Source of the DNA: a virus
DNA length: 64,000 nt
Strand: one strand, 5' to 3'
Virus record (IMG/VR): IMGVR_UViG_3300012931_000018
Span: 23,946 to 87,945 of that record
Shown here: one piece after another, positions 20,673-47,408 of the stretch
Position numbering within the stretch: the first letter of the stretch is position 1
How the letters are laid out: every line of letters starts with the position of its first letter
Position numbers and translations under genes: made by a program
Notes under the pieces: model-generated
Seen by the model: only the letters and a program-made list of their open reading frames with translations
Told to the model about the DNA's origin: nothing
The model's database searches: none

Positions 20673-21200
20673 ATGAGGATGATGATGAAAAAATATTTTT
20701 ATTTTTTAATTATTTTACTCATCATGGTAATAAAAACCAATGCTCAAAGTCATATGTGCAGACCTATTAGAGCATTTGCATCTATATATACTGTAGAAAA
20801 TTCTATTGTTCAATCAGTGCCAACAGGTTCTACTTATATAAAGGTAACTTGCTATTCTAAAAATGGTAGAAATTTTAATTGTATTGCTGATGTAACTAAT
20901 GATCAAATAATAATATCTGTATCAGGCACATATGATCTTACAAGTAATTTTAGTACAATAGCTTCAACTGCTGGTGTGACATTTACAACTGCTTTATTTG
21001 TAGATGAAACTGAAATTGAAAATATCTATACCAAAAGAAGGTGGGTGAATGCAAATGATAATAGTTCAGCATCAATGAGCTGTCAAATTTATTTAATTGC
21101 AGGTCAAAAAATTACAGCAAGATGTAAACATGATAGTGGTAATTCAGTAGATATCACTGTTATATATGCAAATTTAAGTGTAAATTATATTGGAGAATAA
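20673..21200 (+). CDS. Signal-peptide-bearing C1q/BclA-CTD-like beta-sandwich protein
   Basis: MKKYFYFLIILLIMVIKTNA/Q; IIISVSGTYDLTSNFS and LIAGQKIT jelly-roll pattern. Confidence 0.6.
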   Translation: MRMMMKKYFYFLIILLIMVIKTNAQSHMCRPIRAFASIYTVENSIVQSVPTGSTYIKVTCYSKNGRNFNCIADVTNDQIIISVSGTYDLTSNFSTIASTAGVTFTTALFVDETEIENIYTKRRWVNANDNSSASMSCQIYLIAGQKITARCKHDSGNSVDITVIYANLSVNYIGE

Positions 21201-21762
21201 AATGAAAATATTTAATAAAATTTTTTTAATAATATTGCTTTTATCGGGTATTATTTATTCACAAACTGTTATACCTAAAGATAAAATACATTATAAAATA
21301 CCTGGTGATGGTAGTAATGGAAAATTTTCTATTATGGCATATTATAATCCATCAACAAGTCAATATTATTATTATGAACCTACAGCTATTGGAACTATTA
21401 GTTTACCGGATTCAACAGCCTTACAAATTAGTGATCTTGAATCTTCAATAAATATTTTAAGAAGTTATTTTCATCCATCTGAAAGATATGGTGGTGATGA
21501 TAGTGTTACGGTAACTACTGAGACAGATACAATTCGTGCACCAACAAATACAACAACTTGGTGGAAAATAGATATAACCAACATTTCAAGTTCTATAAAT
21601 TTAGAATGGAGTTTTGATGCAGGGTGGAGTTGGCAAAGGGAAATTTTACCAACTATGTCATTTTATACAGAAGTTGCTTTATCTGTAACTTCTGTTGTTG
21701 TTGTACGTAGGCGTTCAGCATCAGGAACTGGATTGTACGATTATATTACTTTTGGTTATTAA
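21190..21762 (+). CDS. Signal-peptide-bearing beta-rich protein (likely start 21202)
   Basis: MKIFNKIFLIILLLSGIIYS/Q; DST, DSV, DTI sequons. Confidence 0.6.
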   Translation: MENKMKIFNKIFLIILLLSGIIYSQTVIPKDKIHYKIPGDGSNGKFSIMAYYNPSTSQYYYYEPTAIGTISLPDSTALQISDLESSINILRSYFHPSERYGGDDSVTVTTETDTIRAPTNTTTWWKIDITNISSSINLEWSFDAGWSWQREILPTMSFYTEVALSVTSVVVVRRRSASGTGLYDYITFGY

Positions 21763-21765
21763 AAA

Positions 21766-43771: not shown

Positions 43772-43787
43772 TTAAAATGAGGTTATT

Positions 43788-46700
43788 ATGAAAAAAATAT
43801 TAATTCAAATATTATTATTTGTATTATTAATACAAACAAATTTATTTTCACAATTTGCTGGTGGAGCAGGAACATCAGTTAGTCCATATCAAATTTCAAC
43901 AGTTACTCATCTTAATAATGTTCGCAATTATTTATCAAGTTATTTTATATTGGTAAATAATATAGATGTAAGTAGTGCTGAATTTACTCCAATCGGAACT
44001 GAAGCTGCTCCATTTACTGGTTCATTAAATGGTAATAGTTTCACAATAAAAAATGCAATATTTATAAATTATTATAATCTTAATAATGCATATTATGGTT
44101 TATTTTCATTAACAAGTGGAGCAACAATAACTAATCTTTGCCTTGAAAGTTGTACTATATATCCAATAAGTGGTTATGATCCAATTAATCCAAATAAATC
44201 TCATTATAATAATGTATATGCTGGAATGCTTGCAGGGAAATCTACAAATACTACAATAACTAATATAAATATTAAAAATCAGTATTCATTAGTTGCCGAT
44301 GAAGTTGGTAGTGGTGTAGAATATAATTATCATGGTGGATTAATAGGTCAACTTAATAGTGGAACTGTTACATCCTGCAGTGTTTGGGGTGGATTGATAA
44401 AAAATAATTCTTATACAAATTCATCTTGTGCTTTAGTTATATATACAGGTGGATTAATAGGATATTCATTAGGTACTCATACAAAATGTAATGCTGTTGT
44501 AGGGATGTATGTTTCTTATTGGGCTAATTCAGGTTCATCAGGGATATATAATCAATTTTTTGGTGGTTGTTTTGGTTTATTAAATGGTAGTGCTACAAAT
44601 TGTTATGCTATAACAAATATAACATATTGGTATCCAAATGGTACTGTTGGTGCATATAAAGGTTATCCGGCTGGATTTGTAGGAACAGGAACAGGAACTG
44701 TTTCAAAATGTTATTCAAGAATGAGATTTGGAACTGTTTATAATAAAACATATACAATAGCATGTTATTTTAATAGTTCATTATTTACAGGAAGTACATC
44801 TAATTGTATTGCCACGGATGATTATTATTCTACATTTACAATTAAAGGAATGTATGATTCTTATACTGAAAATGCAGATACGATAAGCATGAAAGATCAA
44901 ATATTATATACATCAAAAGGATTTGATTTTATAAATACATGGTCTATAAATGGTGCAAAAAATTATGGTTATCCTTATTTAATTAGTACATATACTGAAT
45001 CAACAACACCATTACCGCCAGTACCAACAATTTATTATCCAACTAATGGTCAAACTAATGTTAGTGTTTCAAGTACACAATTAATTTGGTCTGTTTCATC
45101 ACTTGCTACAAGTTATTATTATGAAATAATAGATGCTTTAGATAATATAGTTACATCAGGATATACTACAACAGCATCAAAGACATTAAATAATGTTCTT
45201 GATTATTCTACTACATACCAATTTAGAGTTGCAAATGTAAATGCAGCAGGTTCTACATTTTCTGGTTATAATTCATTTACAACAGAGCAATTTACAGGAA
45301 CATTAGTAGCACCAATTCTTACATATCCAACCGCAGATACAACAGGTTTTGTTTTACCATATTCATTTAGATGGAATAGTGTTTCTGGTGCAGCAAAGTA
45401 TGATTATGAACTTTGGAAATCAGATGGTGCACTTATGATTGATTCTACTCAAGGCATAATTAATACTTATTTATCTCAATCAGGAACTCTTGAAAATGGA
45501 AATAGATATAGATGGCGTGTTAGAGCAACGAATGGTTCTAATTCAAGTCTTTGGTCTGAAAGATATTTTACAGCATCATTAACATTGCCGAGTGCTGTTA
45601 CTCTTGTATATCCTACTGCTAATGATACAGGTATTACAATAAATAGTGAATATCTTATGTGGAATAAAGTTCCTGGTGCAAGTAAATATTATATTGATGC
45701 ATTAGATTCACTAACTGGTTCAAGTATATATCAAGCATGGGTAAATTCACCGGATACTACATTTATAATTTCAAGCGATAGTGGATTTATTGCACATAAT
45801 TGGTATAGATGGCGGGTAAAAGCAAATAATAGTTTAGGTGATGGAACTTATAGTAATTATAGAAAATTTAAAACTGGTGTAATATATAATGGTGAAGGAA
45901 CCAATCCAAATTTACCTTCGTTATTAACCGCTAATTGTTTAGGTGGATATGGTGGAATATTAACTGAAGAAAAAAGAGACACATTGACATGGAATTGGTG
46001 TAGATTTATGACAAATGGTGAGTATGTAAAAGAATTTGGTTTTAATAGAAGCTCTACTAATAATTCACAAGACACAATATATATACCTATTAATGTTACA
46101 TCGTCACCAAAAGATGTTTCCAAACTTCCAAGTTGGCGGTCTCAATTTATATATGACAACAGTAATTCAACTTTTATGACAGATAGTACACAATGGTTTA
46201 ATGATGGTGGAATGTGGATTTATAATGATATAGGAAATGATAATACACTCGGTGCTCAAATAAATAATCAAGTAAGTGGTAATACACTTCAAATAGATTC
46301 TGTAAATTTCATTAGCACCTGGTTAGCTCAATATCCAAGTTATTATTATAGACCCCATGTTATTTGGGTTAGCAATGGTGTAGCAACATTATATACAGCA
46401 CCATTTGCACAATATTTAACATATTACGGTGATAATTTTAGTAAGCCAATGAAAATTAATGATTCTTTATTCATACCACAAGTGTGCTATCAAACAAGCG
46501 GAGCACAAAATGGAAGTACATATACATATACATTTACTGATTATATAATTTGCTGGAATAAAAACACAAATGTTTGGAAGAGATTCAATACAATTAATAC
46601 AGATTCTACTCAATTATCATCTTGGCCAAATGTCAAAATGGATAAAATAGGTGGATTATTTCAATTAGATACCATTATATATTTCTATACAATGTATCAA

Positions 46701-47408
46701 GATCAAACTCCCACATATCCTTTAGATAGAATAAAAATTTGGGCAATGACTACTACTGGTGTTAATAAGTTATTTTCATCAGCAGATTTGACTGCACTTG
46801 ATACAATTACTGATTATAATATGGTATGGAATTCCGACATAGAATTTGCAGGTACAGCAGATACTAATTTATCAGTTGTAGTAAATTATTGGACTAATAC
46901 GGTAGATTGTGAATGGTATTTTCAAGTTTATAATCGAGTTAATAATTATTGTAATGTATATAAATTTGATGGAACTGGTGTTACCAAAATAACTCATCCA
47001 AATCTTACATTAAAATTAAGCAGTGCATATTTAACTCCAGATGGCACAGATTTATTTATGATTTATCAAGATTGGACTAATAAAGGTGGTGGTAGTAATG
47101 CAATAGGATATAAGATTCATACATTAACAAATGTGGTTGATACATTTAATATACCAACATCAACAGTTGATTCTGATACAACAGGATTATTAAATTATTG
47201 TAAATGGTATAATGGGAAATTATATCTTACATCGCTAAGATCATCAGTTGGATTTATTGGCCCATCAATTATGTCAGATACATATATGAAAAAAATATTT
47301 ATATCTGATTATGAAAAAGCCGAAAGAGATTATCCTAAAGATCGTTCTATTGAAATAAAAATTAAAGGCATTAAACCAAAGTCATTAAGAAAGACAAGAC
47401 TTGAATAA
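43788..47408 (+). CDS. Large exported adhesin-like protein (GLUG-type beta-helix, three FN3, beta-rich C-terminus)
   Basis: MKKILIQILLFVLLIQTNLFS/Q; FAGGAGTSVSPYQIST and GGLIG repeats; YQFRV, YRWRVRA, YRWRVKA. Confidence 0.75.
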   Translation: MKKILIQILLFVLLIQTNLFSQFAGGAGTSVSPYQISTVTHLNNVRNYLSSYFILVNNIDVSSAEFTPIGTEAAPFTGSLNGNSFTIKNAIFINYYNLNNAYYGLFSLTSGATITNLCLESCTIYPISGYDPINPNKSHYNNVYAGMLAGKSTNTTITNINIKNQYSLVADEVGSGVEYNYHGGLIGQLNSGTVTSCSVWGGLIKNNSYTNSSCALVIYTGGLIGYSLGTHTKCNAVVGMYVSYWANSGSSGIYNQFFGGCFGLLNGSATNCYAITNITYWYPNGTVGAYKGYPAGFVGTGTGTVSKCYSRMRFGTVYNKTYTIACYFNSSLFTGSTSNCIATDDYYSTFTIKGMYDSYTENADTISMKDQILYTSKGFDFINTWSINGAKNYGYPYLISTYTESTTPLPPVPTIYYPTNGQTNVSVSSTQLIWSVSSLATSYYYEIIDALDNIVTSGYTTTASKTLNNVLDYSTTYQFRVANVNAAGSTFSGYNSFTTEQFTGTLVAPILTYPTADTTGFVLPYSFRWNSVSGAAKYDYELWKSDGALMIDSTQGIINTYLSQSGTLENGNRYRWRVRATNGSNSSLWSERYFTASLTLPSAVTLVYPTANDTGITINSEYLMWNKVPGASKYYIDALDSLTGSSIYQAWVNSPDTTFIISSDSGFIAHNWYRWRVKANNSLGDGTYSNYRKFKTGVIYNGEGTNPNLPSLLTANCLGGYGGILTEEKRDTLTWNWCRFMTNGEYVKEFGFNRSSTNNSQDTIYIPINVTSSPKDVSKLPSWRSQFIYDNSNSTFMTDSTQWFNDGGMWIYNDIGNDNTLGAQINNQVSGNTLQIDSVNFISTWLAQYPSYYYRPHVIWVSNGVATLYTAPFAQYLTYYGDNFSKPMKINDSLFIPQVCYQTSGAQNGSTYTYTFTDYIICWNKNTNVWKRFNTINTDSTQLSSWPNVKMDKIGGLFQLDTIIYFYTMYQDQTPTYPLDRIKIWAMTTTGVNKLFSSADLTALDTITDYNMVWNSDIEFAGTADTNLSVVVNYWTNTVDCEWYFQVYNRVNNYCNVYKFDGTGVTKITHPNLTLKLSSAYLTPDGTDLFMIYQDWTNKGGGSNAIGYKIHTLTNVVDTFNIPTSTVDSDTTGLLNYCKWYNGKLYLTSLRSSVGFIGPSIMSDTYMKKIFISDYEKAERDYPKDRSIEIKIKGIKPKSLRKTRLE

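Follow-up and report, generated by a model that had tools for sequence, protein, structure and literature searches.

Introduction

Assembly of tailed phages is, in the textbook account, wholly cytoplasmic. Exported proteins are also known to be encoded among phage tail genes, as with lambda Lom and Bor, T5 Llp, HK97 gp15 and TP-J34 Ltp, and these act in the host envelope. Here we analyse a window of 64,000 nucleotides, bases 23,946–87,945 of the complete 87,945-bp IMG/VR virus record IMGVR_UViG_3300012931_000018 (direct terminal repeats (DTR) of 123 bp), in which six genes, two of them at the tail-fibre position and three after the capsid gene, open with a hydrophobic leader that is predicted to be cleaved before a glutamine. 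Genes are named by the first position of their open reading frame (ORF) in the window. The Lom, Bor, Llp, gp15 and Ltp proteins resemble them in having signal-peptide, lipoprotein or membrane-anchor N-termini and genes beside tail genes, but are small lipoproteins, membrane proteins or outer-membrane barrels without fibre architecture or exchangeable C-termini, and we found no homology to the Lom, Bor or Cor-type families in Pfam or NCBIfam.

For Bacteroidota, both the Q-rule and the cyclase that belongs to it have been described (PMC10653852). In phages of Porphyromonas gingivalis, Matrishin et al. (2023) proposed that Q-rule leader genes modify the host outer membrane (PMC10367356); as in our window, a predicted signal peptidase I cut exposes Gln, which was read as an adaptation to the Sec system of the host. 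Those are function-unassigned genes of temperate phages, whereas the genes described here are of fibre/spike type, include a pair in a tail slot and belong to a phage with no integrase.

The nearest virion evidence comes from Cellulophaga phage phi18:3 (NC_021794), in which gp085 (..FGYS/Q), gp086 (..GVSA/Q) and gp087 (..GLNA/Q) are annotated in the record as structural on the basis of "experimental MS/MS proteomics" (MS/MS, tandem mass spectrometry); gp082 and gp083 of Cellulophaga phage phi46:3 (KC821622) have leaders of the same type. These are likewise consecutive large proteins of a Bacteroidota phage with a positive (n), hydrophobic (h) and cleavage (c) region followed by Gln. phi18:3 differs in being a cultured short-tailed podovirus of another family, Pachyviridae, and its record is silent on cleavage and on the route of assembly. 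Trimeric C1q/TNF-like receptor-binding tips are described at the C-terminus of lambda gpJ (8xcj/8xck), in BclA and F-BclA (9h38) and at the C-termini of phage minor tail proteins (phrog_746), and share fold or profile with the heads of 42773 and 20673; the known phage tips differ in being made without leaders and assembled in the cytoplasm. In the literature that we searched we found no description of export-routed tailed-phage fibres, and PMC5723332 counts signal peptides in Bacteroides phages, no more.

Six proteins carry leaders that end before glutamine

All 102 ORFs of the complete genome were scanned with an n-h-c heuristic (positive n-region, uncharged hydrophobic stretch, small residues at -3/-1). 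This flagged exactly the five genes in which a sequence-only reading had seen signal peptides cleaving before Q, and one further gene, 5561, outside the span of that reading.

5561..5947, + strand: predicted exported protein, 128 aa, LNG/Q; adjoins a GT-C glycosyltransferase gene
20673..21200, + strand: predicted exported protein, 175 aa, TNA/Q, 5 Cys; a leader and little besides one BclA_C/C1q-like domain
21190..21762, + strand: predicted exported protein, 190 aa, IYS/Q, no recognised fold; probable ATG at 21202
21766..23844, + strand: predicted exported protein, 692 aa, LIA/Q; two fibre/spike-type modules
42773..43771, + strand: predicted exported fibre-type protein, 332 aa, LFA/Q, probable ATG at 42785; leader, N-motif QTTTPPSAYTTYYRLRMWSQGARASADSLNQNWRDLD, shaft and head
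43788..47408, + strand: predicted exported protein, 1206 aa, LFS/Q; N-domain, weak Pfam matches of Fn3/Ig type, long C-terminal part

The remaining hydrophobic N-termini of the genome belong to lipoprotein 9702 (LNG/C), multi-pass membrane proteins and lysis-type proteins. As that reading had also stated, the core virion genes have no such leader: the same scan found none in the terminase (TerL), portal, capsid protein (MCP), head-tail adaptor, tube, tape measure (TMP), 37205 or 41479. Glutamine makes up 2.8% of residues and stands at +1 in all six leader genes, an outcome with a chance probability of about 5e-10; the leaders conform to the Q-rule of Bacteroidota. By the heuristic each leader has the positive n-region, an uncharged h-region of 8–15 residues and the small -3/-1 residues of a signal peptidase I substrate. 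For 20673, 21190, 21766 and 42773 the probable true start is an ATG four codons downstream of the listed one (MKK...), and the leader is positioned after every candidate start codon. In the mature parts Thr, Ser, Gly, Tyr and Asn are abundant and Lys and Glu scarce, a composition like that of extracytoplasmic β-rich proteins.

The leaders are also conserved. The sole homologue of 20673 (P0148, 54% identity) opens with MKKILFFLFLTCIVEA/Q, and the homologue of 21190 in relative L002, which lies beside an 87%-identical capsid gene, opens with MKLLKMFFVLILFSINIFA/Q. In 43788 the leader and Gln are kept in L027/L028 (..LLG/QFAGGSGT) and L031 (..VSG/QNISGSGT). Leaders were thus retained in every close homologue found of these three proteins, which supports the view that they are real, selected features of the Bacteroidota Q-rule type. 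The call of export is based on the heuristic and on conservation rather than on a dedicated signal-peptide predictor, and on this basis the six proteins are very probably exported. Type IX cargo and lipoproteins were considered and ruled out, as Pfam and NCBIfam searches of all C-termini found no C-terminal sorting domain and the leaders have no lipobox.

The sequence-only reading had called several of the proteins Cys-rich, which holds for 20673 (5 Cys), 21766 (16) and 43788 (17) and fails for 42773 (1) and 21190 (0); the number is odd in 20673 and 43788. Searches of the five proteins that it covered against Pfam and NCBIfam gave no family assignment, with weak sub-cut-off BclA_C and Fn3/Ig-type Pfam matches, and 20673, 21766 and 43788 have weak PHROG tail-protein matches.

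The N-terminus of 42773 defines a virus-borne protein family

Directly after its leader 42773 carries the N-motif, one of the two fibre hallmarks quoted in the sequence-only reading; both this and the one quoted for 21766 are present. AlphaFold modelled the N-motif of mature 42773 as a small hairpin with an 18-residue helix (predicted local distance difference test, pLDDT, 82–86) and the C-terminal head as a jelly roll of high confidence (pLDDT about 92); the region between them is disordered or of low confidence, which a shaft would be expected to show when it is modelled as a single chain. By Foldseek the head resembles the receptor-binding tip of lambda gpJ, C1q-like domains (C1QL), TNF ligands and Bacillus BclA tips. 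The C-terminus matches Pfam BclA_C at E 0.003, and in the ESM Atlas the head has viral C1q-domain clusters as its neighbours, Mtd_N being present in one of them. On this model, the head is a C1q/TNF-like domain.

A HMMER search, run exhaustively with residues 1–160 of 42773, returned 115 representative clusters, including that of the query. Family members range from 108 to 1019 aa and almost all share one layout, in which a leader, a small residue, Gln and 3–4 further residues precede PSGYTTxYxLRxWxQGAxPSADSLNxNWxDID and an unrelated C-terminus. The core motif is present in 104 of the 114 other clusters; a hydrophobic leader is present in 102 of these 104, the two exceptions being truncated gene calls in which the ending ..AQ remains. 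Gln follows a small residue in 99 of the 104, mostly 24–26 residues (range 23–30) ahead of the ADSLN core. Across an alignment of 46 sequences Gln25, Pro30, Asp51, Ser52 and Asp61 are invariant, and since Gln25 is invariant together with residues of the motif, the mature N-terminus belongs to the conserved motif.

All viral members of the family are sited in tail modules. The family gene lies directly after the tape measure in L025, L026 and L029 and two or three genes later in L024 and L030, while on the 129–133-kb contigs L027/L028 it follows baseplate wedge genes and is itself followed by a 43788-like leader protein. A pattern scan of 185,579 cellular species genomes found no member, and a profile search of 401 Bacteroidota genomes gave one match, on a phage-like 36-kb contig with further genes for leaders followed by Gln. 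The N-motif had no match in Pfam, NCBIfam, PDB (profile search) or cultured phages.

Two further groups of leader proteins were seen in these searches. L025, L026 and L029 (about 1030–2040) encode another conserved leader protein (..A/S/Q..QP.Q.S.TAKYVKT.., where the last slash marks the predicted cut) after a tail-tube-like gene, and lysis-type genes are embedded near it. In two high-GC viral contigs (55–59%; L034:896–1678 and L035:1253–2305) a leader ending in Gln is followed by a tail-fibre N-terminal motif, ..IQ(I/V)(R/K)RGT.., which in L034 matches Mtd_N weakly (E 0.002, below cut-off) and in a leaderless copy in L031 at 1e-18.

42773 and 43788 occupy the fibre slot of a long-tailed phage

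The genome has a GC content of ~27%, and 99 of the 102 called ORFs share one strand. Its structural module comprises the following genes, given by start position where no range is stated.

11438: terminase (TerL)
14019: portal
15594: minor head protein
17440–18903: 487-aa protein encoded between the minor head protein and capsid genes, with a ChaB domain at its N-terminus (E 1e-13); conserved in relatives
19611: capsid protein (MCP; Pfam Phage_capsid, E 3e-17)
30449: head-tail adaptor
31418: neck
33708: tape measure (TMP; E 2e-96)
37205: tail-tip protein, 1418 aa, leaderless
41479..42750, + strand: leaderless tail-tip protein, 423 aa, N-terminal ~290 aa conserved in all relatives

This module predicts a long-tailed phage of HK97 type. 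No integrase or resolvase was found in the complete DTR genome (PF00589 and PF00239 searched), and this lack of recombinases of the tyrosine and serine types makes a virulent lifestyle probable.

Related phages were found via capsid genes and tape measures. Identity to the closest relative is 53% for the tape measure, 37% for 37205, 34% for 41479 and 68% for a downstream helicase. In relatives G001–G003 (MCP 65–80% identical, GC 29–35%) other proteins with a leader and Gln follow the 41479 homologue. The slot holds in G001 a 613-aa protein that shares with 42773 only its first 148 residues, leader included (43% identity); in G002 a 984-aa protein with β-helix and carbohydrate-binding module (CBM) and a 419-aa protein, both with leader and Gln; and in G003 a 149-aa protein and a 1147-aa pectate-lyase-like protein, again both with leader and Gln. 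The most distant relatives, G004 (GC 37%) and G005 (GC 62%), have leaderless proteins in the same slot. With conserved flanks and swapped genes, the slot is therefore one used for hypervariable proteins of receptor-binding or depolymerase type. These comparisons support the placement of 42773 and 43788 in a conserved fibre slot, distal to the tape measure and tail tip, and no terminator-like site separates 41479, 42773 and 43788. The pair shows further features of fibres: a conserved N-terminal part with exchangeable C-terminal domains, as seen in the module shuffling of the 42773 family, and fibre/spike folds, namely the C1q/TNF-like head of 42773 and the β-helix, CBM and pectate-lyase-like proteins that relatives have in the slot.

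In a comparison of 41479 with L018 (8353–9618), a C-terminal insertion of ~110 aa and an acidic GYGTDYGG..GYGD(I/V)L tail were seen only in the two phages with a 42773-type protein. This is a weak hint that the insertion is a candidate docking partner of 42773.

The other protein of the pair, 43788, has a mature end (QFAGGAGT..PYQI..) that is conserved in other phages and opens a domain of G-x-G-T..PY.I type. Its homologues in L027/L028 (30% identity) and L031 all bear leaders. It has a weak match to phrog_30905, and its Atlas neighbours are GLUG/Fn3 surface proteins with low scores, which serve as a lead only. 43788 contains 14 D[ST][AILVMT] sequons where 4.5 are expected from its own composition (shuffles, P<0.0002); this is a Bacteroidota O-glycosylation motif (PMC8550257). 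A general enrichment of sequons in the leader proteins was also considered and rejected, as the excess is true for 43788 alone.

A variable cassette follows the capsid gene

The genes 20673, 21190 and 21766 form, with one further gene, a cassette that in the window has the following other features.

20633..20663, + strand: terminator-like hairpin with a 14-bp stem, directly 3' of the capsid gene; upstream boundary of the cassette
23920..24210, + strand: 96-aa protein with a single C-terminal membrane helix predicted from sequence; last gene of the cassette
24549..24576, + strand: terminator-like hairpin with a 12-bp stem, ahead of a glycosyltransferase cluster; downstream boundary of the cassette

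Promoter scans gave no signal above shuffles. The domain of 20673 is like the C-terminus of minor tail proteins of phages (phrog_746, E 7e-5) and is weakly similar to the head of 42773. In 21766, module 1 (aa ~30–300) ends in YDNTTSGMTASNVKTAIDEL and module 2 (aa ~335–692) matches the tail protein phrog_4577. Relatives conserve the order capsid, glycosyltransferase cluster, adaptor, and L002 is the only one with a 21190 homologue. Module 1 of 21766 recurs at 49–97% identity in many metagenomic proteins, most of them leaderless, with P0015 as one homologue that has a leader and Gln.

The post-capsid trio lacks the distal tail position of tail fibres. Decoration of the capsid by the trio was proposed in the sequence-only reading and we reject it, since the slot is not conserved in relatives. 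The wider proposal of fibre or spike identity is supported by the C1q-like head, the β-helix-type modules, the Fn3 matches and the position of the tail pair in the fibre slot.

Glycosylation genes, lysis genes and host

A GT-C-fold membrane glycosyltransferase is encoded near the start of the window.

4294–5559: GT-C-fold membrane glycosyltransferase; SADESGH invariant, homologues match PMT_2 and PMT

Enzymes of this fold act on the periplasmic face, and the targets of this one may be phage proteins or host glycans. The model of 4294 (pLDDT 84) was matched by Foldseek to ALG12, PglB/STT3 and ArnT. The gene adjoins that of the sixth leader protein (5561) and genes for a GDP-mannose 4,6-dehydratase and an NAD-dependent epimerase (5944–6945, 8188–9258), and was not found in the five relatives searched. 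A second glycosylation cluster, at 24607–30367 between the capsid gene and the head-tail adaptor, encodes a GT1+GT2 fusion, a GT1-like protein, a polysaccharide pyruvyl transferase, a methyltransferase and a GNAT acetyltransferase. Relatives with as little as 55% capsid identity, a 62%-GC phage among them, keep the cluster at this position, which suggests that glycosylation of the virion or host surface may be a trait of the lineage.

A probable lysis cassette at 9702–11399 consists of a lipoprotein (LNG/C, 207 aa), an endolysin (253 aa) of the Phage_lysozyme family with a hydrophobic N-terminus and a small membrane protein (111 aa), and is compatible with a two-membrane host. In relative G003 (L007:921–3730) the large terminase is split over two ORFs, the second of which opens with an intein-like block (..DFYDLEVPDTHCYFAH) before the terminase similarity, so that the interruption may be an intein or homing element.

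No cultured relatives were found for MCP, 42773, 21766 or two central members of the 42773 family, and 43788 had weak matches to Bacillota phages and nothing else among cultured phages. The GDP-mannose dehydratase is ~55% identical to proteins of many phyla and is thus uninformative on the host.

Discussion

The explanation that we favour, and to which we give an even chance, is that the leader proteins are exported, that the tail pair docks on the particle at lysis and that the post-capsid trio is an accessory cassette. Sec leaders tuned to a Bacteroidota-type host by Gln at +1 would direct the six proteins unfolded into the periplasm, where signal peptidase I would cleave them and the exposed Gln would probably be capped as pyroglutamate. 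42773 and 43788, as exchangeable distal host-recognition proteins, would fold and oligomerise there, 43788 possibly with O-glycosylation, and would meet the fibre-less particles built in the cytoplasm only once holin and endolysin merge the two compartments. The conserved motif at the new N-terminus would then dock the pair, perhaps on the extra C-terminal domain of 41479. The trio would be a variable accessory cassette made of similar modules, present either on the particle or free in the envelope. By analogy with lambda lysis it is plausible that cytoplasm and periplasm mix inside the outer membrane after the action of holin and endolysin, so that exported fibres could meet particles at high concentration. 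We infer export, cleavage, modification and docking from the conserved leaders, the modules of fibre type and the position of the genes; the support for docking is indirect, as it comes from the slot position, the virus-only family, the lack of an integrase and the phi18:3 precedent. Incorporation of the tail pair into the virion is in our view about evenly balanced, and that of the post-capsid trio falls short of this.

Several observations weigh against this explanation. The block 20673–24210 is bracketed by the two terminator-like hairpins, and in L003, L006, L007, L008 and L011 the post-capsid slot holds unrelated, mostly leaderless genes or nothing. P0002, which is 97% identical to module 1 of 21766, starts with MANYTSSYTGIQIDAA where 21766 has its leader, and most module-1 cysteines of 21766 are retained in leaderless homologues. 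Export is therefore not needed for folding of the module, and the idea that Cys-rich composition indicates periplasmic disulfides was rejected for 21766 module 1. In 21766 the leader replaces the N-terminal end of the leaderless form, and production of the module is possible in either compartment. Unrelated tail proteins neighbour the conserved N-motif in different phages, so that no docking partner conserved among the phages is evident; the association of the 41479 insertion with a 42773-type protein is drawn from two genomes against two. The excess of sequons is confined to 43788 among the leader proteins, with none in 21766 or 20673 and a mild enrichment in leaderless 37205. Finally, the phi18:3 proteins have no sequence similarity to the leader proteins of the window, and an MS/MS match in a virion preparation may reflect co-purifying envelope material and is not proof of stoichiometric incorporation.

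The strongest alternative, a serious possibility that we nonetheless place on the minority side, is that the proteins are exported and never join the particle, acting instead as late envelope effectors such as periplasmic or surface binders and glycanases. Their task could be to mask or destroy receptor polysaccharide so that progeny escape debris, to prevent superinfection or to weaken the envelope ahead of release. This would suit the post-capsid trio best, as a non-conserved, hairpin-bracketed cassette in which the leader of 21766 stands in place of the N-terminal end of P0002, and it would explain an N-motif without a conserved phage partner across loci. It also has parallels in Lom, Llp, gp15 and Ltp, as exported proteins among tail genes, and in the proposed outer-membrane modifiers of P. 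gingivalis phages (PMC10367356). The tail pair fits it less well: its genes are closely spaced within the late tail operon, no terminator sets them apart, and no other proteins of the tail module are hypervariable and of receptor-binding type, in a slot that leaderless proteins fill in distant relatives. At 300–1200 aa and with fibre architecture the proteins are also unlike known exclusion proteins, they have no lipobox and no Lom/Bor/Cor-type Pfam match, and leader proteins with Gln were detected by MS/MS in phi18:3 virions. Without an integrase or resolvase lysogenic conversion is unlikely; the sequence-only reading had named host-surface conversion as its alternative, and this is further disfavoured by the near absence of the 42773 family from cellular genomes, although other envelope-directed roles may apply.

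It is improbable that the hydrophobic N-termini serve some purpose other than Sec export, either as membrane anchors or assembly tags until lysis or as segments removed by a phage protease during cytoplasmic assembly. In favour of this, P0077, P0086 and P0118 of the 42773 family have no obvious cleavage site, and capsid "signal peptides" are mentioned as likely removed by a prohead protease (PMC10367356). However, a positive n-region, an h-region of 10–15 residues, small -3/-1 residues and a near-invariant Gln at +1 are the signature of Bacteroidota signal peptidase I substrates and not of anchors, and the composition is that of extracytoplasmic β-rich proteins. That the leaders are an artefact of mis-called starts and never translated can practically be dismissed, for although the listed starts of 20673, 21190, 21766 and 42773 precede the likely ATG and two of the listed starts are TTG, the leader is downstream of every candidate start, no conserved internal Met follows it, and leaders are conserved as hydrophobic segments in about 100 independently called clusters.

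This window contributes a long-tailed lineage, the N-motif family, the 97%-identical pair of leaderless and leader-bearing modules and the GT-C enzyme. A more general form of the explanation we favour, which we hold with slightly less than even confidence, is that phages of Bacteroidota-type hosts may use two-compartment assembly, in which heads and tails would be built in the cytoplasm while recognition proteins would be exported, capped with pyroglutamate (pGlu), partly glycosylated and attached at lysis via pGlu-x3-PSGYTTxYxLRxW..ADSLNxNWxDID. The N-motif family provides a simple sequence handle for finding such proteins, and the cultured Cellulophaga phages make the question directly testable. 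If the secretion, capping and glycosylation systems of the host routinely handle receptor-binding proteins, disulfides and glycans would become available to folding fibres and host range would be tied to the export rules of the host. Current pipelines for annotation and host prediction, in which a signal peptide counts against a virion protein, would then err on a large group of environmental and gut phages.

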